NCBI GenBank assembly: GCA_041498315.1
Contig: JBGQIE010000003.1
Location: 1-53,568, forward strand
Source of the DNA: Candidatus Eiseniibacteriota bacterium
GTDB lineage: Bacteria; Eisenbacteria; RBG-16-71-46
DNA: 53,568 nt
Direction: 5' to 3'
Shown here: positions 2,830 to 17,988 of the stretch, in pieces
Layout: each line of letters starts with the position of its first letter
How positions within the stretch are numbered: the stretch's first letter is position 1
Notes under the pieces: model-generated
Told to the model about the DNA's origin: nothing
Databases searched by the model: none
The model's input: the letters and a program-made list of their open reading frames with translations, nothing else
Position numbers and translations under genes: made by a program

Positions 2830-4101
2830 CTAGTCGCCGGCCAGCGGGGCCCGCGCGCTTTCGCCGCGCGACACCACGACCGCCGCGGCCAGATCGCCGG
2901 TCACATTGAGCGTCGTGCGGCACATGTCGAGGAAGCGGTCCACGCCCAGGATCATGCCGATGCCCTCGGCCGGCACCCCCACCAGTCCCAGGATCATCAT
3001 GACCACCGGAATGGACCCCGCCGGCACGCCCGCGGTGCCGATGCCGCCCAGGATGCAGATGAACACCACGCTCAGCTGCTGCGAGAAGCCGAGGTGGACG
3101 CCGTAGAACTGCGCCAGGAACAGCACCGTCACCCCTTCGAACAGGGCGGTGCCGTTCTGGTTCGCGGTCGAGCCCACCGTGAGCACGAAGCGGCTCACGT
3201 GGGGCGGCAGCCCGAGCTCGCGCTCGGCGACCACCAGCGCGGTGGGCAGGGTGGCGTTGCTCGAGGCGGTCGAGAACGCGGTCAGCATGGCGGTGCGGAT
3301 GCCGCGGAAGAATCGCCACGGGCTCATGCCGCCCAGCCAGCTCACCGAAATCGAGTAGACCACGAACTGGTGGATCGCGAGCGCCCCCACGACCACCGCG
3401 ACGTAGGCGCCGAGCTGGCGCAGGACCCCGACGCCGAGCCGCGCGCTGAGCGTGAACAGCAGCGCCGCCACCCCGAGCGGTGCGATCTGGATGACCAGGC
3501 CGAGCAGGTGCATGACCACGTCGTAGAGTCCCTGGAGCGCCTCCTCGAAGCGCCGCGCGGGCTCGGTGCGCACCACCGCCAGCCCGATGCCGAGGAACAG
3601 GGCGAACACCATGAGCGCCAGCATGTCCCCGTCGCCCATCGCCTTGACGATGTTGCTGGGCACCAGGTTGACGAGGAAGTCCACGCCGGTCGCGCCGGCG
3701 GCCGCCGCGGGCGGCAGCGGGGCGGCCGCGGCCTGGGCTGCGAGGCGCTGCTTGAGCGCCGGCGAGAGCCCGTCGCCGGGGCGGAACAGGTTGACCATGC
3801 CGACCCCGAGCAGCACCGCGATGCTCGAGACCACGACGGTGTAGACGAGGGTCTTGAGCCCGATCCGCCCCAGCCGCCCGAGATCGCCCACCCCCGCCAC
3901 GCCGAGCGCGAGCGCCGAGACGATGAGCGGAATGACGAGCATGAACAGGAGCCGGAGGAAGATCCGGCCCGCCGGCTCGGTGACGAGATGGATGAAGCGC
4001 GCCAGCGCCGGGGAATCGCCGAAGCGCGCGTTCGCCGCCACGCCGAGCGCGAGCCCGGCGAGCAGCCCGATCAGCATGCGGAGCGGAAGCCCGCGGCTCA
4101 T
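2830..4101 (-). CDS. Dicarboxylate/amino acid:cation symporter (DAACS, GltP/DctA-like)
   Basis: Start MSRGLPLRML inside the 937-aa track ORF; motifs AFSTASSNATLP, TANQNGTALFE, GTAGVP, GVDRFLDMCRTTLNVTGD. Confidence 0.92.
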   Translation of the reverse strand: MSRGLPLRMLIGLLAGLALGVAANARFGDSPALARFIHLVTEPAGRIFLRLLFMLVIPLIVSALALGVAGVGDLGRLGRIGLKTLVYTVVVSSIAVLLGVGMVNLFRPGDGLSPALKQRLAAQAAAAPLPPAAAAGATGVDFLVNLVPSNIVKAMGDGDMLALMVFALFLGIGLAVVRTEPARRFEEALQGLYDVVMHLLGLVIQIAPLGVAALLFTLSARLGVGVLRQLGAYVAVVVGALAIHQFVVYSISVSWLGGMSPWRFFRGIRTAMLTAFSTASSNATLPTALVVAERELGLPPHVSRFVLTVGSTANQNGTALFEGVTVLFLAQFYGVHLGFSQQLSVVFICILGGIGTAGVPAGSIPVVMMILGLVGVPAEGIGMILGVDRFLDMCRTTLNVTGDLAAAVVVSRGESARAPLAGD

Positions 4102-4127
4102 GTGGCTCCCTCGCCCGCGCGCGCCGG

Positions 4128-5564
4128 CTAGGGGGTGGCCAACACCGTGCCCGGCCCCAGACTCTCGAGCGCGGGCTGCGCGGTCTTGGGATCGGAGACC
4201 ACCAGGATGCGCAGGTCGTTCACGCCGAAGCGCTGCTTGAGCACGCGCCGGACGTCGGCCATGGTGACGGCGTTGATGCGTTCCGCGTAGGTCTCGAGGT
4301 AGCGCGGGTCGAGCCCGTAGAACTCGATGTTGAGGATCTGCGCCGCCAGGGCGTCCGAAGCCTGGAGCCCGAGCGGGTACTGGCCGGTGAGGTAGCGCCG
4401 GGCCTTGGCGAGCTCCTCCTCGCTCGGTCCCTGGTCCACGAGCTTCTGCACCACGGCGAGCGAAGCGTCGATGCACTTGCGCAGCGTCTCGTTGCGCGTG
4501 AACGTCACGATGACGAAGGTGCCGGCGTTCCGGTACATGGACCAGCGGCTCCCGATGCCGTAGGTGAGCCCCTGGACGACGCGGATCTCGTTGACGAGCC
4601 GGGAGGTGAAACCGCCGCCCAGGATGGTGTTCGCGACCGTGATCGCGTAGTAGTCGGGCGAGTTGCGAGGCACGCCCAGGGTGGCGAGCCGGATCTGGGT
4701 CTGGGTGACCTCGGGCTTGCTCACGATCAAGACCTTCCGTCCGGTCACCGCCTCCGGCGCCCCGTAGACAGGAGCCGCGGCCGCCCCCGCGCCGCCCTTC
4801 CATGCGGCGAAGGCGGACTCGAGCGAGGCCACGACCTGGTCGGGATCGACGTCCCCGACCACCGCGAGCATCGAGTTGGCGGGCGTGACGTAATGCTTCT
4901 GGAACGCCATGACGTCGGCGCGCGTGATCGCCCCCACCGACGCCTGCCGGCCGATGACCGGGTGGGCGAGCGGGCTTTCGCCCAGCAGGAACGGACCCAA
5001 CTCGTTGTTCGCGAGCTCCGAGGGGTCGTCCCGGTCGCTCGCGATCTGCCCGAGCTTCTCGGCCTTCATGCGCGCGAACTCCTCGGCCGCAAACGACGGC
5101 GAGACGATCACGTCGCGGAACAGCTCGAGCCCGGACGCGTAGTCCTTGGTGAGCACGCTGCAGGTCACCGTGAGCTGCTCGGCTCCGGCGTTCGCGTCGA
5201 GCGTGCCCCCGACGAACGCGATCGCCTCGGCGAGCTGCCGGGCGGTGCGCTTGCCCGCGCCCTGGGTGAGGAGATCGGCGGTGAGGCTCGCGAGCCCCTC
5301 CTTGCCGGCCGGGTCGTTGACCGAGCCGGCGCGCACGACCAGCCGGAGGTCCACGAGCGGCACGCGGTGGGTGGGCATGACGAATACCGTGAGCCCGTTC
5401 TTGAGCGTGATCTTGCGCACCGGGGGAAGCCGGAGCGTCCCGGTGGCCGCCCGCGCGGGCGCGATCGCTCCGGGGCCGGTCGCGGCGAGCAGGGCGGCGG
5501 CCAGCAGGGCGGCGCCGGTCTTCACGAACCCGCGTGAGAACGACATGGAGGTTCCTTTCATCAT
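4128..5564 (-). CDS. M16 (pitrilysin-like) peptidase, non-catalytic subunit
   Basis: Signal peptide; LKNGL, RAGSVNDP, ILGGGFTSRL..EIRVVQGLTY; lacks HxxEH; ATGA overlap with upstream M16 gene. Confidence 0.88.
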   Translation of the reverse strand: MMKGTSMSFSRGFVKTGAALLAAALLAATGPGAIAPARAATGTLRLPPVRKITLKNGLTVFVMPTHRVPLVDLRLVVRAGSVNDPAGKEGLASLTADLLTQGAGKRTARQLAEAIAFVGGTLDANAGAEQLTVTCSVLTKDYASGLELFRDVIVSPSFAAEEFARMKAEKLGQIASDRDDPSELANNELGPFLLGESPLAHPVIGRQASVGAITRADVMAFQKHYVTPANSMLAVVGDVDPDQVVASLESAFAAWKGGAGAAAAPVYGAPEAVTGRKVLIVSKPEVTQTQIRLATLGVPRNSPDYYAITVANTILGGGFTSRLVNEIRVVQGLTYGIGSRWSMYRNAGTFVIVTFTRNETLRKCIDASLAVVQKLVDQGPSEEELAKARRYLTGQYPLGLQASDALAAQILNIEFYGLDPRYLETYAERINAVTMADVRRVLKQRFGVNDLRILVVSDPKTAQPALESLGPGTVLATP

Positions 5565-6952
5565 GGGGCCGTGGGGGCCGACGAGGCGGCCGCGGTCGCT
5601 TCCTTCTCGGGCACCAGCTCGACGACGGTGCGGCGGCGCGCATCGAAGACCTGCTTGGCGACGCGCTTGCAGTCGGCCGCGGTCACCGCGCGGTAGGTGG
5701 GAACGGTCTGGAACATTTTGCGGTAGTCGCCGAACACGTGCTCGTAGTAGCCGAGCGCCTGGCCCACGCCGTTGTTGGTCCTCATCTGGCGCACGAAGTG
5801 CGCTTCGAGCTGGTTCTTGGCCTTGTCGAGCTCGCGCGGCGTCGGTCCCTCGGCGATCATGCGCTGGAGCACGTCGTCCACCACCTTCTCGCCCTCGGCG
5901 GCGGTCTTGCCGGCCTTCATCTCGACGTAGATCTCGAACAGCGCCGGGTCGAGCCGGGTCTGGAACGAGGTGCTGGCCGAGAGCGCGATCTGCTTCTCGT
6001 ACACCAGCGCCTGGTGGAGCCGCGATGACTCGCCGTCGGAGAGGATCGACGACAGCACGTCGAGCACGTAGATGTCCGGGCTCGCCACCCCCGGAGCCTT
6101 GTAGCCCATCTCGAAGCTCACATCCTGCGCCGGATAGTGCACCTGGGCGCGGCGCTCGCCGCGCTGCTCGGGCTCGGAGTTGATGGGCGGCAGGGGCGGC
6201 TTCTGGGCCGGGATGCGGCCGAAGGCGCCCTGGATCTGGGCCAGCGCGCTCTTGGTGTCGAAGTCACCGGTGAGCACCAGGATGCAGTTGTTGGGCGCGT
6301 AGTAGGTGCGGAAGTAGTTGACCATCTCGTCGCGCTGGATGCGGTTCAGATCGCCCATCCAGCCCACGACCGGCCAGCGGTAGGACGCGGCGACGAACGC
6401 GGTGGCGTAGAGCTGCTCGTCGATCATGCCGGCGATGTCGTTGTCGGTGCGCAGCCGCCGCTCCTCCTTGACGACCTCGATCTCGCTCTTGAGCTGCTCG
6501 GGCAGCAGCGAGAGCGAAGCCATGCGGTCGGAGTCGAGGAACAGCACCTTGTCGAGCCGGTCCGAGGCGACGTCCTCGTAGTAGGCGGTCATGTCGCGGT
6601 CGGTGAACGCGTTCGAATAGCCGCCGTTCGACTCGAGGATCTTGTCGTATTCCTTGGGCGGCACCCGCTTCGAGCCGTTGAACATCATGTGCTCGAAGAA
6701 GTGCGAGATGCCGGTGATGCCGGGCGACTCGTTGCGCGAGCCCACCCGGTACCACTGCCAGAACGTGATCGTCGGGACGCTGTGGTCCTCGTGGGTGAGC
6801 ACGACCAGCCCGTTGGGGAGCGTGTGGCGCTCGACCACGAGCTGTTCGGGTGTCAGGGCGCCGGCCGGCGCGGCGGCGGCGCGATCGGGCCCCGGCGCCA
6901 CCACCGCGGTCGCGAGCAGGAAGGCCACCGCGGTGCGCGGAAGGATGTGCAT
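5561..6952 (-). CDS. M16 zinc peptidase, catalytic subunit
   Basis: GGAGG RBS before MHILPR; signal peptide; TGISHFFEHMMFNGS (HxxEH), NAFT, EVVKEERR. Confidence 0.92.
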   Translation of the reverse strand: MHILPRTAVAFLLATAVVAPGPDRAAAAPAGALTPEQLVVERHTLPNGLVVLTHEDHSVPTITFWQWYRVGSRNESPGITGISHFFEHMMFNGSKRVPPKEYDKILESNGGYSNAFTDRDMTAYYEDVASDRLDKVLFLDSDRMASLSLLPEQLKSEIEVVKEERRLRTDNDIAGMIDEQLYATAFVAASYRWPVVGWMGDLNRIQRDEMVNYFRTYYAPNNCILVLTGDFDTKSALAQIQGAFGRIPAQKPPLPPINSEPEQRGERRAQVHYPAQDVSFEMGYKAPGVASPDIYVLDVLSSILSDGESSRLHQALVYEKQIALSASTSFQTRLDPALFEIYVEMKAGKTAAEGEKVVDDVLQRMIAEGPTPRELDKAKNQLEAHFVRQMRTNNGVGQALGYYEHVFGDYRKMFQTVPTYRAVTAADCKRVAKQVFDARRRTVVELVPEKEATAAASSAPTAP

Positions 6953-7132
6953 GAGACCTCCGGAATGGACGGGCGGGACGTGGCGTGGGATTCCGGGCAG
7001 GATAGGAGGACGCCCCGCCCCGGGCAAGCCGGGCCGCACGAACGCGGCGAGGCGGCCGCCCGGCGGCGGGATTCCGGGCTCAGCGGCCCGCGGGTGACGC
7101 GCCGCGGCGCACCGCCTCGCGCCGGCCCGGGC

Positions 7133-8305
7133 TCAGCGGCCGCCCTCATCGTCGGGTGGCGCGGCGCCGCGGGCGCGCGCCCACAGGTCGCCCGACCACA
7201 CGATCTCCGCCCCCACCAGGTTCTGCCGGTAGCTGCCGGGATCGCTCGCGAGCGTGACCGCGCCGCCGTAGCGGGCGTCGTTGCTCTCGAAGCGGTCGAA
7301 GCCGCGCAGCGTCCAGTGCGAGCGCAGCTGCGCTCGCAGCCCCGCCTCGATCGTGTGCTTGAGGTCGCGGCGACCGAAGTGGGAGGTATCCTGCGGGCGC
7401 TCCGCGTCGTAGGAGCGTTGCTCGAGGCGGTAGGCGAGATCCGCGCCGGTGCGCAGCCCCGCGCGGCGCGAGAACTCGGTGCGGCCGCTCAATCCCCCCT
7501 GCCAGCCGTGGTAGCTCACGTCGGCGGTGGACAGGAGTGCCCCTGCGGAGAGGTTGCGGCCGTCGGCGAGGCTCTTGCGGTAGCCGCCGAGCAGCTCCAG
7601 CGCGGCGCGATGGGGGAGCCGCGTGAACCCCAGGGTGAGCTCGCCCTGGTGGGTGCCCGAGGTGCGCTCGGCGAAGAAGGGCGTGTAGGAGCGGCGCTCG
7701 AACTGGTAGCCGAATCCGAGCTGCGTGCCGCGCCGCAGCGACTGCGTCCATGCCGCCTCCCCGACCGCCAGATCGAACTGGGCGCGCTCGTAGACGCCGG
7801 GCGCGAACCCCGTCCCCGTCACGTGGAGCTGGCGCAGGTAGTAGGCCGGCAAGAGGTAGCCGCGCAGCGCGAGGCGGTGCCCCCCGGCGAAGCTCTCGCG
7901 CCAGGTGAGACCCGCCGAGCGGAAATCGACGGTGCGGTTGCGGGCGTGGTAGTCGCCGTCGCCCTTCAAGCGCACACTGTGCCGGCGGCCGTGGCCCTCG
8001 TCCCCCTCCCAGGTCAGGGCGAGCGAGGGATTGAAGGTCACGTCGTCGTGCGACTCGATCGCGAACCGGCCGGGCTGGGACACCGGATCCCAGGCGTCCA
8101 GTTCGCGTAGCTGCGGGTCCGAATACTGGAGCAGGTTGCTGTCGTACCAGGTCGAGAGGCCGACCGCGAGACCGAGGCTCTGGCCCGCCGCCGCCCATGC
8201 GCCCGGCGCGCCCACGATGAGCCCCACGAGCGCAAGTCCCGTGAACCCTCCGTGCCACGTCCAGCCGCGCCTGCGTTCCATGGAAGCTCCCTCGAGAGTG
8301 GTCAT
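7133..8305 (-). CDS. Outer-membrane beta-barrel protein, last gene of pgs operon
   Basis: Start at 8305 (ATGA overlap) or 8281 (GGAG RBS); signal peptide; N-terminal strand ending YDSN; alternating aromatic/polar strands (LGFGYQFERRSY, LELLGGYRKS, TGADLAYRLEQRSY). Confidence 0.72.
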   Translation of the reverse strand: MTTLEGASMERRRGWTWHGGFTGLALVGLIVGAPGAWAAAGQSLGLAVGLSTWYDSNLLQYSDPQLRELDAWDPVSQPGRFAIESHDDVTFNPSLALTWEGDEGHGRRHSVRLKGDGDYHARNRTVDFRSAGLTWRESFAGGHRLALRGYLLPAYYLRQLHVTGTGFAPGVYERAQFDLAVGEAAWTQSLRRGTQLGFGYQFERRSYTPFFAERTSGTHQGELTLGFTRLPHRAALELLGGYRKSLADGRNLSAGALLSTADVSYHGWQGGLSGRTEFSRRAGLRTGADLAYRLEQRSYDAERPQDTSHFGRRDLKHTIEAGLRAQLRSHWTLRGFDRFESNDARYGGAVTLASDPGSYRQNLVGAEIVWSGDLWARARGAAPPDDEGGR

Positions 8306-9201
8306 GGTTGGTTGCCGACGGAGGGCGCCGGAATCCGGGCGTGGATCTCCGCCGAGCCGCGCGCCGGTCGAACCAGATGGAATTCGATCTCGTGCAGCCC
8401 GCCGCCGACCGCGAGACTGAAACGGTCGAGCTTGGACGGCACGCGGTGCTCGAGCCCGGTGTACGTGGCCGCACCCGACTTGGTGGTGTGGAAATCGAGC
8501 GTGCGCAGCGTGCGCCCGTGCTCGACGACGCGCAGCCGATAGGCCTGGGCGCCGATCATCGCGGGCTCGTAGTCGAGACGCGTGATGCAGTCGAGCGTGC
8601 TCGGGCCGACCACGCGCAGCACGACCGGCCGGTCCGGCAGGATGCTGTAGTAGGCGATCGATTTCTCCCCCTCGATCACCGAGACGCTGCGCGAGGCCCG
8701 GACCGGGGTCAGGCTCACCCACTCGATCGGCGCCCGCGCGGGCTCGGCACGCTGGAGGCGCACCAGCACCTCCCGGAGTCCCGTGAGGACGAGCCGGATC
8801 GCGTGCGTGCCCGCGGGCACCTCGACGATCATCCGCCGCCCCGCGCCCAGCGCCGCGACCCCCTCGGCCTTCACGCCGCGCGCGGCCCCGGCGCGCTCGT
8901 CGGCCGCGCGCAGCGCCTGCTCCCCCTCGAGCGCCACGATCTGGTAGGCGGCCTCACCCTCCGGCCGCTCGGTGAGCACCGCGCGCGAGATGACGCGCAG
9001 CCGCGCCGGCCCGCTCACCGTGACCGTGAGCGGCGCCCGCGGCGTGAGCCGGAAGTAGGTGCGCGGCCTCTTGCGGACGGTCACGGTGACGGCGTCGTGC
9101 CCCGGCAGTTTCTCGATGCTCTCCCAGCCCGCGGCAGCCGCCGTGATGGCGAGGCCCAGCATCGCCAGGGCGGGGAACAGGGTGCGTGTCAGGAGGTTCA
9201 T
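8302..9201 (-). CDS. Exported protein with two tandem homologous beta-rich domains
   Basis: MNLLTRTLFPALAMLGLAITAAAA signal peptide; internal repeat TYFRLTPRAPLTVTVSGPARLRVISR vs AYYSILPDRPVVLRVVGPSTLDCITR; ATGA overlap with pgsW. Confidence 0.78.
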   Translation of the reverse strand: MNLLTRTLFPALAMLGLAITAAAAGWESIEKLPGHDAVTVTVRKRPRTYFRLTPRAPLTVTVSGPARLRVISRAVLTERPEGEAAYQIVALEGEQALRAADERAGAARGVKAEGVAALGAGRRMIVEVPAGTHAIRLVLTGLREVLVRLQRAEPARAPIEWVSLTPVRASRSVSVIEGEKSIAYYSILPDRPVVLRVVGPSTLDCITRLDYEPAMIGAQAYRLRVVEHGRTLRTLDFHTTKSGAATYTGLEHRVPSKLDRFSLAVGGGLHEIEFHLVRPARGSAEIHARIPAPSVGNQP

Positions 9202-10319
9202 TTCGGGGGTGTCCTCTCGGGGTGTGGCTGTCCCAGCAGCTGCTGGCGGAGGTCGAGCCGCAGCACGAACAGGTTGGCGAGCAGCACGAGCAGCGCGGCG
9301 CCGGCGGTGATCCACAGGTTGTAGCGCTTGCGGATGAACAGCATGCCCTGGCCCGCCGGCTCGGGGTTCGCCGCGCCGTCGGTGATGTCGAACTCGCGCG
9401 CCAGCCGCTCGACCTGGAGCAGGTGGATGACGGGGAGGCGGCGCTCGCCCAGCACGTTGATGACGCCGCGGTTCGGATAGTTGCGGGTCGTGAGGCGCTG
9501 GCTGAGGCCGGCGGGGATGAGCCGGCCGTTCTGGGCGCCGCCGAGGCTCGCGACCCCGCCGCCGACGTTGACGTAGAGCCTGATCGGCTTGCCGCGGGCG
9601 GCGGCGACCGAGTCGTAGAGGGCGACGCGCTCGCGCACCGCGACCAGCAGGTTGGGCGGATCGAGCAGACGGGCGCCGCCCCGGTCGATGGCGTCGATCA
9701 GGAGCTGGCGCCCGGCCGGCGACAGCCCGCGCCCCACGTCGCCCCCGCCCCCCAGCGAGGCCGCGAGCGAACGGTAGGGCCACAGCCCGGCCTTCACCGC
9801 GACCGCCTCCATGTCGAGCCAGCTCATCTCGGGGTCGGTGGCGCCGAACATCGAGGAGCCGGCCGACGTGATCAGGATGGGCTCGGCGCCGATCGCCCGG
9901 CAGGCGGCGAGCACCGCCAGGTTCATTCCCGGCAGCGAGCCCGTCATCCCCACGGCGACCAGGTCGCCGCCGCGCACCCCCGCCTGGAGCATCATCTGGG
10001 TCACCGCGGCCGCGAAGTTGGGATGCGCGGCCAGGCTTTTCGCCGCCTGGGCGCCGCGGTCGGTCGTGATGAGCGTGAACTCGGGCCCCACGAGCCCCGA
10101 GCCGGTGGGATCGTTGCGCGGGTCCACGGCGACGCCGCGCTCGCGCTTGGAGGTCGCGATCGCCCCCTCTGCCTTCTGCATCAGCCGCACTGCCTCGAGC
10201 TTCATCCGGTAGGCCTCGGCGTGCACCGGCGTGAGCGAGCGCTCCGCGACCGCGTAAGCGGCGAGCGCGAAGCAGGCCAGCCCGACGAGCGCCGGGGTCG
10301 AGGCGCGCGAGAGGCTCAT
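9198..10319 (-). CDS. pgsW: Poly-gamma-glutamate system protein PgsW
   Basis: N- and C-terminal TM segments; NDPTGSGLVGPEFTLITTDRG..K..HPNFAA, TGSLPGMN, GSSMFGA, YVNVGGG; directly follows pgsBC. Confidence 0.85.
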   Translation of the reverse strand: MSLSRASTPALVGLACFALAAYAVAERSLTPVHAEAYRMKLEAVRLMQKAEGAIATSKRERGVAVDPRNDPTGSGLVGPEFTLITTDRGAQAAKSLAAHPNFAAAVTQMMLQAGVRGGDLVAVGMTGSLPGMNLAVLAACRAIGAEPILITSAGSSMFGATDPEMSWLDMEAVAVKAGLWPYRSLAASLGGGGDVGRGLSPAGRQLLIDAIDRGGARLLDPPNLLVAVRERVALYDSVAAARGKPIRLYVNVGGGVASLGGAQNGRLIPAGLSQRLTTRNYPNRGVINVLGERRLPVIHLLQVERLAREFDITDGAANPEPAGQGMLFIRKRYNLWITAGAALLVLLANLFVLRLDLRQQLLGQPHPERTPPK

Positions 10320-10765
10320 CGGATGAGGTTCCCGGCGTTGATCAGCATGAGGAGCAGCCGCACCAGCACCGCGGTCGTGGTCATGACGCAGACGGTCTGG
10401 ACCACGCCCTGGCGCTCCATCCAATTGGCGATGAGCCCCGGGATGACGAAGCCGATGGTGCGCAGGTCCACCGGCAGGTCGTGGAGCTTGAAGACCAGCA
10501 GGTCGCGCGACAGGGCGCCGTAGATGAAGCCAATGAGCACCGCGACGACGATCCGGCGGCGGCCGTAGACCAGCGCGTAGCGCGACAACAGCTTGAGCGT
10601 GCCGAGGGTTAGCAGCGAGACCGCGACCGTGCCCACGATGCGCAGCGGCTCGTGGATCATGAGCGCCAGGTAGCCGGGCACGACCATGCCGCCCGCCGCG
10701 AGGCCGAGAGTCTCGGAGAAGACGAGACTGATCGCGAGCCCCAGGCCGATCGCCTCTTCAACCAC
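10316..10765 (-). CDS. pgsC: Poly-gamma-glutamate biosynthesis protein PgsC/CapC
   Basis: 149-aa hydrophobic protein with GGMVVPGYLAL, YGRRR, IGFVIPGLIANWMERQG. Confidence 0.95.
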   Translation of the reverse strand: MVEEAIGLGLAISLVFSETLGLAAGGMVVPGYLALMIHEPLRIVGTVAVSLLTLGTLKLLSRYALVYGRRRIVVAVLIGFIYGALSRDLLVFKLHDLPVDLRTIGFVIPGLIANWMERQGVVQTVCVMTTTAVLVRLLLMLINAGNLIR

Positions 10766-11936
10766 GTTCGACCGCCCGGTTGCTGAAGTGGAGCACGATC
10801 TCCTCGCCCAGCCCGACGATGTTGCCGATCCCGACCACCACGCCCCGGTCCTCGACCAGGTCGAGCACGTGCTCGTAGACGCGCTCCGCGTCGTACCCGC
10901 CCAGGTCGCGGATGCGATCCGCCGGAAGCCCGTGCTGGACGGCCTGGAACGCCACCAGCGCCGTGCCCCCGCCGGTCAGAACCACGAAGTCCGGATCGAG
11001 CCGTCGGCCCACGAGCTCGGCGATCTGGCCCGAGCGCTGGAGCCGGTCGGGGCGGCAGTTCGCGAGCACGATGCGCCGCACGCCCGGCTCGCGCCGATCG
11101 AGACCGAGACGCTGCCAGATGAGCAGCGTGGAGTCCGGGTCGTTGGCGGCGAACGCGTTCACGAACTCGACCACCCGCCGTCCGCTGCGCACCGTGTAGC
11201 GGCGCAGCACGCCGGGGTCGGGGGTCGCGGCCTGCATGCCGCGCAGCGCGGTCGCGCGGTCCACGCCGAGGTGGGCGCACACCGCGAGCGCGAGCGCCAC
11301 GTTCTCGGCGTGCTCGAAGTAGGAGAAACCCGCCAGATCCTCGCGGCCCACCCCCGACCCGTCCACGATCTCGAGCCGGGTGCCGCGCCGCCGTGCGACC
11401 GCTTCGAGGACCGGCGCGCGCGCGCGCTCGGCCGTGAACGCGTGGCCCCCCACCGGGAGGGTCTGCGCCAGCGCCTCGGCGGCGTCGTCCACGGTCGGAC
11501 CCATGACGTCGAGGTGGTCGGCGCGCACGTTGGTGATGACGCCCACCGTGCTCCGGATGAGCCGTAGCTCGGTCACCGGCTGGAGCTCGGGGCTCACCGC
11601 CATGCACTCGACGACCAGCGCGTCCGCTCCCGCCTCGAGCGCGCGCCGCACGACGCGGGTCTGCTCGATGATGTTGGGGCTGCCGACCCGGTAGACGTCC
11701 ACTTCGCCGCCGTCGGGGCCGATCATGCGCGCCATCGTGCCGGTCGTCTTGGCGAACACGCGCCGTCCGCCGGCCCTCAAGCCCCCAGCGATGAGGCGCG
11801 TGACGGACGACTTGCCGCGCGTGCCGTTGACGTGCACGCGGACGGGGATGCGGTCGAGATTGCGCTGGTGGCGACGCGATTCGAGGATACCGTAGGCCGC
11901 GAGGCCCACGGTCAGGACCACCGGGACGAGGATCAT
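10758..11936 (-). CDS. pgsB: Poly-gamma-glutamate synthase PgsB/CapB
   Basis: GGAGG RBS; N-terminal TM; HVNGTRGKSSVTRLI, KTTG, ECMAV, TNVRADHLDVMG, NAFAAND. Confidence 0.95.
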   Translation of the reverse strand: MILVPVVLTVGLAAYGILESRRHQRNLDRIPVRVHVNGTRGKSSVTRLIAGGLRAGGRRVFAKTTGTMARMIGPDGGEVDVYRVGSPNIIEQTRVVRRALEAGADALVVECMAVSPELQPVTELRLIRSTVGVITNVRADHLDVMGPTVDDAAEALAQTLPVGGHAFTAERARAPVLEAVARRRGTRLEIVDGSGVGREDLAGFSYFEHAENVALALAVCAHLGVDRATALRGMQAATPDPGVLRRYTVRSGRRVVEFVNAFAANDPDSTLLIWQRLGLDRREPGVRRIVLANCRPDRLQRSGQIAELVGRRLDPDFVVLTGGGTALVAFQAVQHGLPADRIRDLGGYDAERVYEHVLDLVEDRGVVVGIGNIVGLGEEIVLHFSNRAVERG

Positions 11937-12087
11937 GTCCTCCAGCTCGGTGCAGGATTCGGGCCCGGAGGGAGTGAGCCCGGCGGCCGGCCCAAGCGAA
12001 TGTCGCGCCGCATCCTGCCTCATCGCCGGGCAGGCGTCCACGCATCCAGACGGACCATCTCTCGCGCGGTGCCCGAACTCTGGCCGC

Positions 12088-13044
12088 TCAGTCCGGGAAC
12101 GCGACCAGGTGCGCGGCACGCTGCTCGTGCCACAACCCCGCCCCCGTGAAGCCCGGGCCCTCGAGGGCGAGTTGCTCGCCCAGCCCGCGCGAAGGCCGCG
12201 ACGTGATGCGCGCCCCCGCCACTCGCGCGAGCCAGTCGGTCGCCCCGATGCCCGGCGCCACCGCGGGGCTTCCGGGTGCCTGCTCGGCCGCCATGAGATA
12301 CGACGGCATCAGGCGACGGCCCAACGCCGCCCAGCTGTCCGGGTGCCCGATGATCTCGAGCCCCAGCAGGCGATGGTTCACGAGCGCGATCACGCCCACC
12401 TGTCCGGGCAGACTCTCGAACGCCCGCGCCTTCTCGGTCGCGGCGCCCAGCCGGGAGGCCACCCCTTCGTAGTAGTCGCGGCTCGCGGAGCGCGTCCTGC
12501 TCGCCTCCAGCGAAATTTCGACATCCTTCCAGAGCCTCGCCTGATCCACGTGGCCGATCGTGCGGGCTTCCTTCACGGTGGCCTGGCGAAGCGTCGGCTC
12601 GACGTGCGAGGGCGCCGCCTTGAATCCGCCCCACGATGGGGACCAGCGCCCCTGCTGCACGCAGCCCACCGGCACGCTCGCGGTCTGCCCCGCGCCGACC
12701 AGCACGCTGGCGACGACCGTGCGGTTCTGCTTCGCGCCGACGATCGCCTCGCCCTCGAGGAGGAGCACGGGCAGCGGGCCCCGGTTGCGCGCGAGCAGCT
12801 CGTTGACGACCCCCTGGCCCTGCTCGAGCACATCGAAGGTGCCGGCCTCGAGCGCCTGGTGCAGGAGCACGAACGGCTCCCCGGCTTCGCCACCGAGGAG
12901 CAGCGGCCAGACGTCGAGCCCGTGCGCCCGCTGCGGCTCGGCGAGCCGCAGGCGCCCGAGCCAGCCCGCGAGATCCGGGCCCGCGAGGGTGGCCCCGGCC
13001 TGATCTGACGTGAAGAGTTCGCGCGGATAGAGTGGGCGGTTCAT
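12088..13044 (-). CDS. ARPP-1 (DUF6569)-like domain protein
   Basis: AGAAAGGA RBS before MNRPLYP; motifs VLLLEGEAIVGAKQNR, VPVGCVQQGRW, DQARLW, GQVGVIALVN recalled from the ARPP-1/DUF6569 family. Confidence 0.75.
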   Translation of the reverse strand: MNRPLYPRELFTSDQAGATLAGPDLAGWLGRLRLAEPQRAHGLDVWPLLLGGEAGEPFVLLHQALEAGTFDVLEQGQGVVNELLARNRGPLPVLLLEGEAIVGAKQNRTVVASVLVGAGQTASVPVGCVQQGRWSPSWGGFKAAPSHVEPTLRQATVKEARTIGHVDQARLWKDVEISLEASRTRSASRDYYEGVASRLGAATEKARAFESLPGQVGVIALVNHRLLGLEIIGHPDSWAALGRRLMPSYLMAAEQAPGSPAVAPGIGATDWLARVAGARITSRPSRGLGEQLALEGPGFTGAGLWHEQRAAHLVAFPD

Positions 13045-13055
13045 GATGGAATCCT

Positions 13056-13178
13056 TTCTCTGAGCGGAGAACGTGGCGGGCATGCCGGTCCATTTGCCGG
13101 TTTGCTCGTCGCCTTCGACCGGCACTATAATCTCTGACTGGAGAATGGTCAAAGAATTTGTTTCCTGTAGAGAGAATG
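13056..13178. promoter_or_regulatory. Three candidate operators, consensus TTCTC-N6-GAGAA
   Basis: TTCTCTGAGCGGAGAACG (13056-13073), ATCTCTGACTGGAGAATG (13130-13147), TTTCCTGTAGAGAGAATG (13161-13178). Confidence 0.65.
13124..13152 (-). promoter_or_regulatory. Sigma70-type promoter of ARPP-1-like gene
   Basis: TTGACC-N17-TATAGT on minus strand in an AT-richer patch. Confidence 0.7.
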
Positions 13179-13188
13179 TCGCCAGTGG

Positions 13189-13217
13189 TTGCCGAACGGA
13201 CCTGCCAAAGCTAGGCT
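13189..13217 (+). promoter_or_regulatory. Sigma70-type promoter of XRE regulator (probably leaderless mRNA)
   Basis: TTGCCG-N17-TAGGCT; only 7 nt between -10 and ATG at 13225; no Shine-Dalgarno. Confidence 0.55.
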
Positions 13218-13224
13218 GTCCAGC

Positions 13225-14103
13225 ATGAAGCGTGGAACCAACCCCAAGCCGCGCACGAGGATTCCAGACCCGATCGGGCAGCGGATCAAGGACCTTCGGA
13301 CCGCTCGCGGAATGTCCCTTCAGGATCTGGCAGAGCGGGTGGGGGTCGCCCCTTCGCACGTTTTCCACGTCGAGAACGGGGACAAGGTCCCCAGCGAGGA
13401 GCTGGCGGCCGAGATCGCCCGGGTGCTGCAGGATGACGTGGATCTCTACCGCGCCTGGGCGAGGGCCCGGTCGCGCTCGGACTTCTACACCGCGGTGTCC
13501 TCGGCCGAGGTGCTCGCGCAGTACCTGCGCGACGTGGAATCGCAGCGGCTCGAGGAGGAGAAGGTGCCCGAGCAAGTCGCCGCCATGATGAAATGGGAGC
13601 GGCCCCGGGTCGGCGGCGGGTCGAAAGCGAAGCAACCCACCGCCCGCCTGATCGGTGCCCGTCAGGCGGCGATCGCTCCGCAGCCCGCGCGTCTGCTCGT
13701 CCCCCTGCTCGCCGCCGGCGCCGACCCGGGCCGGGAGCCCGCCTCCTCGCAGGGCGTCGAGGCCATCCGGCTCGACCCGCGCGCGCTCGACCAGAGCGAG
13801 CCACTCGAGCGGCCGTTCGCCTACGCGCTCACCCCCGCGACCACGAGCCGCGTCGCGGGGCTCCTGCCCGATCGCGGCGTCGCCATCTTCACGCGCCGCG
13901 TCCTGCCCGTGGTCGCGCACGAGATCTACGCGGTCCGGCACGAGGGACGCGTCGTGCTGAGCCGCGCGATGTGGAACGGGCGCGAGCTGCTGCTCCTGCC
14001 CGCCCCGGGCGCGAGCGATTTTCTCGTGCTCTTCGCGGAGAGCGAGGCGGCCGTGGCGGCGCTCATCGCGGGCCGGGTCGCCGTGGTGCGCGCCGAGCCC
14101 TAG
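13225..14103 (+). CDS. XRE-family HTH regulator with degenerate S24 (LexA/CI-like) C-terminal domain
   Basis: IGQRIKDLRTARGMSLQDLAERVGVAPSHVFHVENGDKVPS (HTH_3); C-terminal VPLLAAG..FAYAL..EIYAVRHEGRVVLSR resembles S24 fold. Confidence 0.8.
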   Translation: MKRGTNPKPRTRIPDPIGQRIKDLRTARGMSLQDLAERVGVAPSHVFHVENGDKVPSEELAAEIARVLQDDVDLYRAWARARSRSDFYTAVSSAEVLAQYLRDVESQRLEEEKVPEQVAAMMKWERPRVGGGSKAKQPTARLIGARQAAIAPQPARLLVPLLAAGADPGREPASSQGVEAIRLDPRALDQSEPLERPFAYALTPATTSRVAGLLPDRGVAIFTRRVLPVVAHEIYAVRHEGRVVLSRAMWNGRELLLLPAPGASDFLVLFAESEAAVAALIAGRVAVVRAEP

Positions 14104-14126
14104 GCCCGCCACCCCCGCCGAACGCC

Positions 14127-14468
14127 GTGCCCCTCCCACTCCACCTCGAGCGCCTGGCCCGCGAGTGCGTCGTCACGCCCTTCAAGTCCTCGGGCCCGGG
14201 CGGGCAGAAGAAGAACAAGACCGAGTCGAGCGTGCGCGTGCGCCACGTGCCGACCGGGATCACGCGCATCGCGACCGAGAGCCGCTCGCAGGCCCGCAAC
14301 CGCACGCTGGCACTCGAGCGGGTCTACGACGAGCTCAAGCGGCGCGCGCGCAAGCCCAAGCCCCGCACCCCGACCAAACCCACGCGTGCCGCGAAGGAAC
14401 GGCGCCTGGACGAAAAGAAGCGCGCGGGCGAGAAGAAGCGTCTGCGCGGGGCCTCATCCGAGGAGTAG
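14127..14468 (+). CDS. arfB: ArfB/YaeJ-like peptidyl-tRNA hydrolase (ribosome rescue factor)
   Basis: SSGPGGQKKNKTESSV (GGQ), ESRSQARNR, basic tail PRTPTKPTRAAKERRLDEKKRAGEKKRLR. Confidence 0.82.
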   Translation: MPLPLHLERLARECVVTPFKSSGPGGQKKNKTESSVRVRHVPTGITRIATESRSQARNRTLALERVYDELKRRARKPKPRTPTKPTRAAKERRLDEKKRAGEKKRLRGASSEE

Positions 14469-14494: not shown

Positions 14495-15184
14495 TTAAGA
14501 GCGGTCGAACCCCTCGTGTTCGGCCGCGTCCTCCGCATGATGCTTGATGACGCGGGCCTCCGCGATGAACACGACCTCCTCCGCAACGTTGGTCGCCATG
14601 TCGCCCACCCGTTCCAGGTTGCGCGCGACCAGGATCAGCTCCAGCGCCCGAGTGATCGTCGCCGGATCCTCGGTCATGAAGGTGAGGAGATCGCGGAACA
14701 GCTGCCGGTTGAGATTGTCCACCTCGTCGTCGCGCCGGCAGATGCGACGGGCGGTCTCGGCGTCGTCGCGCACGAACGCGTCGAGCGCCTCATGCAGCAT
14801 GTCGCTCGCCAGCTCGGCCATGCGCGGGATGTCCACGCGCGGCTTGAGCTGCGGTTGCTCGGCGAGCCGCATCGCGCTGCCGGCGATGTTGACCGCGTGA
14901 TCGCCGACGCGCTCGAGGTCGTTCGAAATCTTGAGCGCCGAGGTGATGAAGCGCAGGTCGCGGGCGAGCGGCTGCTGAAGCGCGAGCAATCGCAGGCAGC
15001 GGTCGTCGATGTCAAGCTCGAGCCGGTCGATGAGCTTGTCGGCCGCGAACACCTCGCGCGCCAGCGCCGGATCGCGCCGCATGAGCGCGTCCACCGCCTT
15101 GAGGATGATGGCCTCGGCGTGGCCGCCCATGCGCAGCAGCTGCTCCCTGAGCGCCTCGAGCTCGCGTACGAAATGGCGTTCCAC
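14495..15184 (-). CDS. phoU: Phosphate signalling protein PhoU
   Basis: LQQPLARDLR, DLERVGDHAVNIA, LERVGDMATNVAE; follows pstB. Confidence 0.96.
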   Translation of the reverse strand: MERHFVRELEALREQLLRMGGHAEAIILKAVDALMRRDPALAREVFAADKLIDRLELDIDDRCLRLLALQQPLARDLRFITSALKISNDLERVGDHAVNIAGSAMRLAEQPQLKPRVDIPRMAELASDMLHEALDAFVRDDAETARRICRRDDEVDNLNRQLFRDLLTFMTEDPATITRALELILVARNLERVGDMATNVAEEVVFIAEARVIKHHAEDAAEHEGFDRS

Positions 15185-15202: not shown

Positions 15203-16051
15203 CTAGCCGAACCGGCCGGTGATGTAATCCTCGGTGAGCTTGACGCGCGGGCTCGTGAACAGCTGCTTGGTCGCGTCGGCCTCGACCAGCTCGCCGGAGA
15301 GCAGGAACGCGGTGCGGTCCGAAACCCGCGCCGCCTGCTGCATGTTGTGCGTCACGATCATGATGGTGTAGCGCGTCTTGAGGTCGAGCATGAGCTCCTC
15401 GATGCGCGCGGTGGCGGTGGGATCGAGCGCCGAGGCCGGCTCGTCCATGAGCAGGACCTCGGGGTCCACGGCGAGGCAGCGTGCGATGCACAGCCGCTGC
15501 TGTTGCCCGCCCGAGAGCCGCAACGCCGGCTGGCCGAGGCGGTCCTTGACCTCCTCCCACAGCGCCGCACGCTGCAGGCTGTCCTCGACCCGCGCCTCGA
15601 CCTCGAGGCGATTGCGGAGCCCGAGCATGCGCAGGCCGAACGCCGCGTTGTCGAAGATCGACTTGGGGAACGGATTGGGCCGCTGGAACACCATCCCGAC
15701 CCGCCGCCGCAGCGCCACCACGTCGGTGGCGGGATCGAGCACGTTCTCGCCCGAGACCCTCACCTCGCCCCGCGTGCGCACACCGGGGATGAGGTCGTTC
15801 ATGCGGTTGAAGGCGCGCAGCAGCGTGCTCTTGCCGCAGCCTGACGGGCCGATGATCGCGGTCACGCTGTTCGTCGGGACGTCGAGCGTGATGTTTCGCA
15901 GCGCGTGATGGGCCCCGTAGAAGAGATGAAAGTTTCGCGTCGCGAGCCGGCCTTCGGGCCGCGCGGCCTCGGTCGGCGCGACCGGACGGTCCGCGCCCGG
16001 GGCCGGGGCCGCCAGGCCGGCATTGATTCGCAGGGGTGTGTCCACGCTCAT
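15203..16051 (-). CDS. pstB: Phosphate ABC transporter ATP-binding protein
   Basis: [56 protein letters not shown]. Confidence 0.97.
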
Positions 16052-16097
16052 CAGCTTAGTCCGCGCGCGCCGCGGGCGCGAACGCTGACCGCCGCGC

Positions 16098-17021
16098 TCA
16101 TCGCCGCACGATCCCGCGGGTGGCGACGCGCACCAGCGCCGACACCAGCGTCACGAGCAGCAGCAGCACCAGCGCGGCGGTCCACGCCTGCCGATTCCAG
16201 TCCTCGTACGGCGCCCGTGCGTAGTCGAAGATGTAGACCGGCAGCGAGGCGATCGGCTGGTCGAGCGCCAGGGTCCAGAAGCGGCTGCCGAGCGCCGTGA
16301 ACAGCAGCGGCGCGGTCTCGCCCGCGGCGCGCGCGAGCGCCAGCAGGCAGGCGGTGATGACGGCGCCCGAGGCCGCGGGCAGCACCACGGAGTGGATCAT
16401 GCGCCAGCGCGGCGCCCCCAGGCCGAGCGCGGCCTCGCGGTAGGAGCGCGGCACCAGCCGCACCACCTCCTCGGTCGAGCGCACGATGGTGGGCAGCATG
16501 AGGAGCCCGAGCGCAACCCCGCCCGCGAGCGCGGAGAAGCGCCCCATCGGCACCACCACCAGCCCGTAGGCCGCGACCCCGACCACGATCGAGGGCACGC
16601 CCGAGAACACGTCGGCGGTGTAGCGCACCAGCGCTCCCAGCCGCCCGTCGCCGTATTCCGCGAGGTAGAGCCCGGCGCCCACGCCGACCGGCACCGCGAA
16701 CAACGCCGCGAGCCCGATCAGGACCAGCGTGCCGACGATCGCGTTCGCCACGCCGCCGCCCGGCTCCCCGACCGGCTTGGGCAGGTGGAGGAAGAAGTCG
16801 AGGCTGAGTCCGGCCAACCCCTTCGCGAGCAGGTGCCAGACGATCAGGGCGAGCGGCAGGATCACGACCGCGGCGGCGAGATGACAGAGCACGATGACGC
16901 CGCGGTCGTGCAGCCGGCGGGCCCGCGAGGGCCCGCGATTCTCGAGCGGCGCCGGCGGCCGGCGGCCCGAACCACCGGCAGGCCGCGCCCGGCCCGGCTC
17001 AGGCCGCGCCGGCGACGTCAC
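16098..17021 (-). CDS. pstA: Phosphate ABC transporter permease PstA
   Basis: [28 protein letters not shown]; operon position. Confidence 0.95.
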
Positions 17022-17988
17022 GTCGGCCTCCGGTGGCCCAGAGCACCAGCAAGCGCGCCACGCCGTTGACCAATACCGTGAAGCCGAACAGCACCAGCGC
17101 GATCTCGACCAGCGCCGAGAGGTGGAGCCGGCCGGTCGCCTCGGTGAACTCGTTGGCGATCACGCTCGCCATGGTCGCCCCGGGAGCGAGCAGCGAGGCC
17201 GAGATGCGATTGGTGTTCCCGATCACCATGGTCACCGCCATGGTCTCGCCCAGTGCCCGCCCGAGCGCGAGGATCACGGCGCCCAGGATCCCGGGGCGCG
17301 CGGCGTCGAGCGTGACGCCGATCGCCTCGGCGCGCGTCGCGCCCAGCGCCAGCGCCGCCTCGCGCAGCGTGCGCGGCATCGCGAGCAGCACCTCGCGCGA
17401 GATCGAGACGATGGTGGGCACGATCATGATTGCGAGCACGATCCCGGCGTTCAGCATGCCGATCCCGAACGGGTAGCCGCGGAACAGCGGCAGGAACCCC
17501 AGGTGGGCGATGAGCCACGGCTCGACCGTGACGCGCAGGAAGGGGGCGAGCACGAACATCCCCCAGATGCCGTAGACGATGCTCGGGATCGAGGCCAGCA
17601 GCTCGACCACGAACGATACCGCCTGGCCCACCCCGCGCGGCGCGATTTCGGCCAGATAGACCGCGGCGCCGACCCCGAGCGGAAGCGCGAGCACCAGCGC
17701 GAGCGTCGAGGACACCACCGTGCCGTAGAGGTAGGGCAGCGCGCCGAACTTCTCCGCCACCGGATCCCAGGTCGTGCCGACGAGGAAGCGCCAGCCGAAG
17801 GCGCGAATTGCGGGCAGCGCGCCGTGGGCGGTCTCCCACACGATCAGCGCGACCACCGCGAACACCGAGAGCGCCGCCAGCGCCAGCAGCCGGCGGTGAA
17901 GCTCGTCCGCCGACAGCCAGCGCGGGAGCGTCTTCGTGCGCGGGCGCGCGAGCGCCGCGGCGCGCATCGTGGTCATCCCGACACCCAC
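16999..17988 (-). CDS. pstC: Phosphate ABC transporter permease PstC
   Basis: ELLASIPSIVYGIWG, GRALGETMAVTMVIGN; operon position. Confidence 0.95.
   Translation of the reverse strand: MGVGMTTMRAAALARPRTKTLPRWLSADELHRRLLALAALSVFAVVALIVWETAHGALPAIRAFGWRFLVGTTWDPVAEKFGALPYLYGTVVSSTLALVLALPLGVGAAVYLAEIAPRGVGQAVSFVVELLASIPSIVYGIWGMFVLAPFLRVTVEPWLIAHLGFLPLFRGYPFGIGMLNAGIVLAIMIVPTIVSISREVLLAMPRTLREAALALGATRAEAIGVTLDAARPGILGAVILALGRALGETMAVTMVIGNTNRISASLLAPGATMASVIANEFTEATGRLHLSALVEIALVLFGFTVLVNGVARLLVLWATGGRRDVAGAA

Follow-up and report, generated by a model that had tools for sequence, protein, structure and literature searches.

A poly-gamma-glutamate synthase cassette with a candidate outer-membrane exit channel in Candidatus Eiseniibacteriota and other two-membrane bacteria

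How could a chain of poly-gamma-glutamate (PGA) that is made at the inner membrane reach the surface of a cell that is enclosed by a second membrane? This question is raised by five consecutive genes on the minus strand at positions 7133-11936 of the DNA analysed here (the window), which comprises 53,568 nucleotides of contig 3 (JBGQIE010000003.1) of the genome assembly GCA_041498315.1 of a Candidatus Eiseniibacteriota bacterium. PGA is a capsule material, a biofilm component and an industrial polymer, and nearly all work on its secretion concerns one-membrane bacteria. The 3.1-Mb metagenome-assembled genome, which is 82% complete and stems from a sediment bacterium, encodes BamA (441 bits, cut-off 297) and LpxC (302 bits), and the host therefore has two membranes, the outer one with lipopolysaccharide. 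The five genes encode the synthase subunits PgsB and PgsC, a third protein, PgsW, an exported basic protein, here called P2, and a putative outer-membrane β-barrel as candidate exit channel. We regard it as probable that this cassette is a trans-envelope system for PGA synthesis and secretion in a two-membrane bacterium, and the block is our best candidate for the exit of PGA from such cells. The strongest support for secretion comes from a gene order that is constant across phyla, from fusions of PgsW with P2, from loci in which a different type of barrel takes its place, and from barrel paralogues in polysaccharide operons.

The first two genes belong to known families. PgsB, the ligase subunit (10758..11936, minus strand, 392 residues), matches the NCBIfam equivalog TIGR04012 over residues 6-383 with 426.4 bits against a cut-off of 222.7, has a Mur_ligase_M match in Pfam (E 2.7e-10), and carries one N-terminal membrane anchor, its single hydrophobic segment at residues 1-19. 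The membrane subunit PgsC (10316..10765, minus strand, 149 residues, GTG start) contains four hydrophobic segments and matches TIGR04011 (122.6 bits, cut-off 96.45) as well as the CapC family PF14102 (E 1e-34). That PgsB and PgsC polymerise glutamate is established for both families. PgsW (9198..10319, minus strand, 373 residues), whose gene directly follows pgsB-pgsC, matches TIGR04332 with 276.4 bits (cut-off 100), and its hydrophobic segments at residues 6-24 and 335-353 flank a predicted periplasmic domain of about 310 residues with an isoelectric point (pI) of 10.0. A profile search against the sequences of solved structures found no relatives of PgsW, just two chance-level matches to spidroins. 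The name PgsW comes from an earlier note on this DNA, and literature searches for it returned unrelated uses of those letters only. NCBIfam names the family "poly-gamma-glutamate system protein", a phrase that is reportedly used in one Francisella paper. PgsA/CapA (PF09587, PGA_cap) is not encoded within the operon, and its best match in the whole genome reaches 21 bits, below the cut-off of 27; because of the incompleteness of the genome there may be an unassembled copy. A gamma-glutamyltranspeptidase is encoded elsewhere in the host genome.

P2 (8302..9201, minus strand, 299 residues) and the barrel (7133..8305, minus strand, 390 residues from the first ATG and 382 from the second) complete the operon. 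The listing of open reading frames (ORFs) and their translations gives overlaps of 8, 4, 4 and 4 bases at the four junctions from pgsB to the barrel gene, the last of which reads ATGA. This agrees with the earlier note, with one caveat: because the gene call in a public protein collection starts the barrel at the second ATG, 24 bases downstream of position 8305 (382 residues), the last junction may be a gap of 20 bases instead of an overlap. In three relatives (L003, L005, and L006) the barrel ORF overlaps the stop codon of the preceding gene by 4 bases when ORFs are drawn from the first start codon. The G+C content of the window is about 72%, so that long spurious ORFs are found throughout it, in every frame. 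P2 and the barrel are taken as real genes because both have homologues (62 for P2 and 31 for the barrel), conserved columns, and confident predicted folds.

P2 does not match any Pfam or NCBIfam family at E up to 1, and the profile search against solved-structure sequences found no relatives. It starts with a hydrophobic, signal-peptide-like segment (residues 3-21) with no cysteine near it. The AlphaFold2 model, built from an alignment of 36 relatives, has a mean predicted local distance difference test score (pLDDT) of 88.3 and a predicted template modelling score (pTM) of 0.51 and contains two all-β domains. The two halves are homologous to each other (hhalign 98.3%, E 2e-14), which points to an internal duplication. 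As single domains they match the folds of the carbohydrate-binding modules (CBMs) CBM51, CBM35, CBM6, and CBM22 with Z-scores of 8-9.3 and root-mean-square deviations (rmsd) of 2.8-3.8, a range that the tool rates as middling. BcsB of cellulose synthase is among the matches to the two-domain protein (Z 8.3 and 7.9, values likewise rated middling, with a high rmsd). The mature protein has a pI of 10.3, the median pI across the 36 relatives is 9.9, and 42 orthologues from other phyla have a median pI of 9.6 and a median net charge of +14.5. The C-terminal tail is conserved, and the final dozen residues are among the most conserved of the protein. The P2 profile matches 786 of 1.84 billion cluster representatives at E up to 0.001; the nearest protein-atlas clusters of P2, all of them without a name, belong to Eiseniibacteriota, Bacteroidota, and Fidelibacterota. 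The earlier note had taken P2 for a periplasmic adaptor. However, "adaptor" is a loose term for a tandem CBM-like β-sandwich protein that is sometimes fused to PgsW, and in these traits P2 is more like BcsB than like a membrane-fusion adaptor.

The last protein of the operon also lacks a family: it does not match any Pfam family at E up to 1, including Alginate_exp, nor any NCBIfam family, and a precomputed match to PF13505 is found in only two of its 31 homologues. It is a single-copy gene in the host genome. Behind an N-terminal hydrophobic segment (residues 21-39) the AlphaFold2 model (alignment of 30 relatives, pLDDT 82.1, pTM 0.78) shows a closed barrel of 14 strands. As to a C-terminal aromatic β-signal, the last strand ends at the nearly invariant W375, which is followed by about 15 poorly conserved residues, those at 381-390 having a pLDDT below 50. 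All matches listed by Foldseek are outer-membrane β-barrels, except one TonB-dependent transporter complex, and nearly all matches of a structure search independent of Foldseek are outer-membrane β-barrels, too. In the latter search CymA comes out best (Z 24.0, rmsd 3.3, 287 of 312 residues aligned), together with OmpG (Z 21.1, 245 of 252 residues aligned), while FadL-type and BAM-associated barrels reach Z-scores of about 17 and the polysaccharide porins PgaA, BcsC, and PelBC 13.9-14.6. The sequence identity to CymA and OmpG is only 9%, and the profile search found no relatives of the barrel among solved-structure sequences. Thus the product of 7133-8305 models as a barrel with outer-membrane channels as matches, as had been predicted. 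When barrel residues 38-390 were modelled together with P2 residues 24-299, the predicted complex scored 0.13 (mark 0.32), which is uninformative in either direction.

If P2 and the barrel belong to PGA synthesis they should be found beside its genes, and the earlier note had proposed a survey of gene neighbourhoods in which homologues mostly away from pgsBCW would have spoken against the idea. Within the phylum, 206 genomes were searched with profiles of TIGR04332, P2, and the barrel, which were found in 67, 66, and 79 genomes, respectively, and adjacency counts were tallied by hand. All 65 genomes having both pgsW and P2 encode P2 directly downstream of pgsW on the same contig. One partner only is present in G091 (PgsW alone), in G135 (a PgsW fragment), and in G164 (a P2 fragment, with the barrel, at a contig end). 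The phylum contains 43 strong barrel matches (E up to 1e-40), of which 32 lie directly after P2, two are split from P2 by contig ends, two are on contig fragments too short for a decision, and seven, which are considered below, are located away from pgs genes. Family f10 has a weaker barrel match about 1 kb after P2, which in L036 forms the C-terminal part of a 700-residue ORF as drawn here. The barrel relative of G081 (L034:12484-14514, minus strand, 676 residues) carries N-terminal tetratricopeptide repeats (TPRs) ahead of the barrel part, an arrangement shared with the export porins PgaA, BcsC, and PelB.

Some pgs clusters of the phylum differ from that of the window in their accessory genes. 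G091 encodes a full PgsW without P2 (L040:234-8086) and has genes for a gamma-glutamyltranspeptidase and a DUF6305 protein directly upstream of pgsB, which are themselves preceded by a porin-like gene of 429 residues. In other families, three types of genes that are absent from the window operon are joined to the pgs cluster (L033:2-7225, L031:9123-17001, L034:8822-16000, L036:1158-3698 and 10142-11326). These encode a lipoprotein-like protein of about 840 residues with LVIVD repeats and an FGE-sulfatase domain, an HGSNAT_cat acyltransferase-like membrane protein of 370-390 residues, and a large protein with a C25-peptidase or FlgD_ig domain. In four loci weak barrel matches of families f7, f9, f11, and f13 belong to a conserved block upstream of pgsB that also contains the FGE-sulfatase/LVIVD lipoprotein and the HGSNAT-type acyltransferase-like gene; the Pfam assignments of these two accessory proteins come from one locus (L033).

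The linkage extends far beyond the phylum. One genome per species was scanned with a PgsW alignment that was built from loci of other families, because the PgsW protein search had given close relatives only, and the best 80 of at least 580 pgsW loci were examined. In 31 of these PgsW is 65-79% identical to that of the window, and a few of them carry labels of other groups. The other 49 loci score far lower, with a PgsW that is 40-48% identical, and are labelled Bacteroidales, Lentimicrobiaceae, Ignavibacteria, Melioribacteraceae, Zixiibacteriota, Nitrospirota, and others, most being Bacteroidota and Ignavibacteriota. According to a profile scan of the ORFs, pgsW is immediately followed by P2 in every one of the 80 loci, and P2 by the barrel in 65 of them, including 40 of the 49 distant ones. 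The homologues of both genes are thus mostly found beside pgsBCW (P2 in 80/80 and 65/65, the barrel in 65/80 and 32/43), and in view of the counts 65/65, 80/80, and 65/80 we reject a chance adjacency in this one genome.

Of the 15 loci without a barrel at this position, seven are on contigs that end less than 1 kb from P2, and in two loci the barrel is located just upstream of pgsB. The remaining six have no barrel of this family although at least 2.4 kb of sequence are left after P2. In three of the six P2 is followed by a TonB-dependent-type barrel (OMP_b-brl_3 and Plug; L078:11025-14181, L081:7748-9898, L118:11076-14239), with a hydrolase gene in between in L118, and in a fourth an Alginate_exp barrel is convergent to P2 (L061:3136-4692). 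Gamma_PGA_hydro genes are present in three of the barrel-less loci (L078, L089 at 3258-3914, and L118). Five loci in the scan have odd labels, namely Dormiibacterota, Acidobacteriota, Omnitrophota, Hyphomicrobiales, or Clostridia (L048, L052, L070, L074, and L086). Their PgsW is 70-74% identical to that of the window or, in the case of L086 with its Clostridia label, the barrel groups with Bacteroidota rows in the tree; misbinning, mislabelling, or gene transfer may explain this.

Five fusions of PgsW with P2 were found, three of them in cluster representatives among the 150 P2 relatives listed and two in genomes of the phylum (L031 and L032). The three representatives are about 680 residues long, with the full TIGR04332 domain in front of P2. 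Because the fusions retain, in addition to both PgsW membrane segments, a third hydrophobic segment at the position of the P2 signal peptide, the P2 domains should face the periplasm, adjacent to the domain of PgsW.

The barrel also occurs in other operons. Two paralogues follow a family-2 glycosyltransferase and a β-helix protein, one of them also with a chondroitinase-B-like lyase, and this arrangement is the layout of a synthase-dependent polysaccharide operon. Another group of paralogues stands alone. In L025 (2982-12399), L028, L029, and L030 a stand-alone barrel gene immediately precedes an operon for cytochrome c and cytochrome oxidase (COX1-4), and in L025 genes for an M4-type protease and an emfourin inhibitor are found on the other side of the barrel. 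In a FastTree tree of 80 barrels (local support values, midpoint root) the stand-alone and the glycosyltransferase-linked groups form one clade each (support 100 and 99), and both fall within the clade of pgs-linked barrels from the window's own family. The direction in which barrels moved between operons is not shown by this tree, since its root is only a midpoint.

From the gene identities, folds, charges, membrane topology, conserved linkage, and fusions we infer that P2 binds the polymer, that the parts contact each other, and that PGA passes through the barrel. In such a system PgsB and PgsC would polymerise glutamate at the inner membrane, and PgsW, whose basic periplasmic domain has a membrane helix at either end, would replace the missing PgsA/CapA. 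After its export P2 would be free in the periplasm or, in the fusions with PgsW, tethered; it would bind the emerging polyanionic chain and guide it across the periplasm, as BcsB does for cellulose. The 14-stranded barrel would be the outer-membrane exit pore, in the role of AlgE, PgaA, BcsC, and PelB but as a smaller, CymA/OmpG-like barrel. The proposal of the earlier note, that the last two genes form an export module for PGA, is supported by the modelled barrel fold and by the conserved linkage.

Compared to the PgsBCA(E)/CapBCADE systems of Bacillus the cassette has the same PgsB and PgsC equivalogs, the same order at the start of the operon, and a similarly tight coupling. It differs in the absence of PgsA/CapA, in the lack of CapD and PgdS in the operon, in having TIGR04332 as third gene, and in the addition of a periplasmic protein and an outer-membrane barrel, neither of which is needed with one membrane. 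The three-gene cassette pgsB-pgsC-TIGR04332 known to NCBIfam is present completely, in the same order and above the cut-offs. That description has no model for P2 and the barrel, yet both are nearly as constant (80/80 and 65/80 loci). In design the cassette resembles the synthase-dependent exopolysaccharide systems, such as Alg8/44-AlgK-AlgE for alginate, PgaCD-PgaA for poly-N-acetylglucosamine, BcsAB-BcsC for cellulose, and PelB/C for Pel, in which, by the same logic, one operon supplies a polymerase in the inner membrane, a part that binds the polymer in the periplasm, and a barrel in the outer membrane. However, the product here would be a polyamide from an ATP-dependent ligase and not that of a glycosyltransferase. 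The porins of the PgaA, BcsC, PelB, and AlgE type have 16-18 strands; compared to PgaA, BcsC, and PelB the barrel of the window has 14 strands, no TPR domain, and no match to a Pfam barrel family. CymA and OmpG, the best structural matches, are monomeric channels with the same number of strands but no sequence relationship by profile search. They import sugars, whereas the gene context of the window barrel points to export.

Neither an outer-membrane component or exporter for PGA nor the way in which a two-membrane cell transports PGA across its periplasm is described in the literature searched, which did not cover subscription journals; to this extent the statement of the earlier note that none has been characterised stands. 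The CapsuleFinder model for PGA capsules, as given in the part of the publication consulted, consists of CapABCDE only, and the same part states that two-membrane bacteria need an extra outer-membrane protein (PMC5542703). The consulted sections of a 2026 review treat the CapBCE complex of Bacillus only (PMC13721041). In the excerpt available of a 2013 review Fusobacterium nucleatum is named as the Gram-negative PGA producer, the localisation of its PGA being said to need study (PMC3815933).

Several observations weigh against secretion through the barrel, and most of them would suit a porin that takes up solutes for synthesis, such as glutamate, peptides, or cations, and is merely co-transcribed, the polymer leaving by another way or staying in the periplasm. 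CymA and OmpG, which match the barrel best in structure, serve for uptake, and 14-stranded channels of this kind are known as uptake pores, not as exporters. A crude count by parity and hydropathy, made without coordinates, assigns 19 basic and 18 acidic residues to the lumen, and the pI of the barrel, 8.8 in the window, ranges from 4.9 to 9.7 across the family. Therefore, a basic, polyanion-selective lumen, which had been expected by the earlier note along with the closed barrel, is not shown by this count, which is too coarse for a decision. In the phylum seven of the 43 strong barrel matches are away from pgs genes, and families f7, f9, f11, and f13 have only weak barrel matches that are 4-25 kb away or on other contigs. 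Four of the five strong stand-alone paralogues are found beside the cytochrome operon, and four of their genomes have no pgsW match while the fifth has only a fragment. Thus the barrel can persist without PGA synthesis. Nevertheless, we consider an uptake porin quite unlikely. A general porin would not usually keep its place directly behind P2 as this barrel does in 65 of 80 loci, which span several phyla, and both the TPRs in one barrel relative and the paralogues beside glycosyltransferase and lyase genes are typical of porins for polymer export. It could also be that P2 and the barrel hold or process the polymer without exporting it, P2 as an anchor, a chain-length ruler, or a cation store and the barrel as a membrane anchor or surface display site. 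A basic, CBM-like P2 fits binding as well as guiding, and some cassettes have a Gamma_PGA_hydro or gamma-glutamyltranspeptidase gene next to them. Bacillus, according to the part consulted of the 2013 review, has the dedicated anchoring and cleaving enzymes CapD and PgdS (PMC3815933). However, this role would leave the route of the polymer to the surface unexplained, the closest folds of the barrel are open channels, and its substitution at the same position as well as the paralogues in polysaccharide-synthase operons fit a pore better than an anchor. Such a role is therefore unlikely.

A different doubt concerns the product itself, which might not be free PGA but a mixed polyamide or an envelope component modified with gamma-glutamyl groups, either of them handled by P2 and the barrel. 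The literature searches did not find any carrier of a TIGR04332-type cassette with demonstrated PGA, which also speaks against PGA secretion. In addition, the third subunit PgsW differs from PgsA, and the HGSNAT_cat acyltransferase-like and FGE-sulfatase/LVIVD lipoprotein genes by the clusters of other phylum families hint at further chemistry. On the other hand, PgsB and PgsC are far above their equivalog cut-offs, three related loci have Gamma_PGA_hydro genes and another one a gamma-glutamyltranspeptidase gene, and the consistently basic P2 and periplasmic domain of PgsW fit a polyanion. Hence another product seems rather improbable to us, and PGA secretion through P2 and the barrel is the explanation that we prefer.

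P2 and the barrel, both without a family name, are concrete candidates for moving PGA across the periplasm and the outer membrane. Based on the best 80 of at least 580 loci, they accompany the synthase in hundreds of species, among them many Bacteroidota whose labels point to environmental samples. Whether PgsB-PgsC-PgsW-P2-barrel constitutes a previously undescribed class of secretion machines for a poly-amino-acid polymer seems to us evenly balanced. As such it would be widespread in two-membrane bacteria (Eisenbacteria, Bacteroidota, Ignavibacteriota, Zixibacteria, and their kin), with P2 as a polyanion-binding guide built into the synthase complex and the barrel as a modular exit pore that has been transferred between polyglutamate and polysaccharide operons in the course of evolution. 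If this were true, synthase-dependent export would extend to a polyamide, tools that search for capsules could include an outer-membrane component in their polyglutamate class, and engineers would have parts to test for making PGA in Gram-negative hosts.

Sequencing records list 24 sediment-metagenome DNA runs that contain part or all of the operon and no RNA run. A scan for promoters and terminators did not find any terminator-like site in 3900-13300, including the space between the barrel and the M16 genes, and the sole promoter-like site in this range (13124-13152) is located between the ARPP-1 gene and the HTH_3 gene, upstream of the former. The M16 peptidase genes (4128-5564 and 5561-7039, both minus strand) overlap each other by 4 bases and are 93 bases downstream of the barrel. 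On the other side, 151 bases upstream of pgsB, lies the unrelated ARPP-1 domain gene (12088-14139, minus strand; PF20208, E 8e-60), whose true extent is probably shorter, and beside it the divergent gene of an HTH_3 regulator (13189-14103, plus strand). These are followed by a PhoU gene (14495-15184, minus strand; PF01895, E 9e-53) and further ORFs on the same strand at about 15203-17988.

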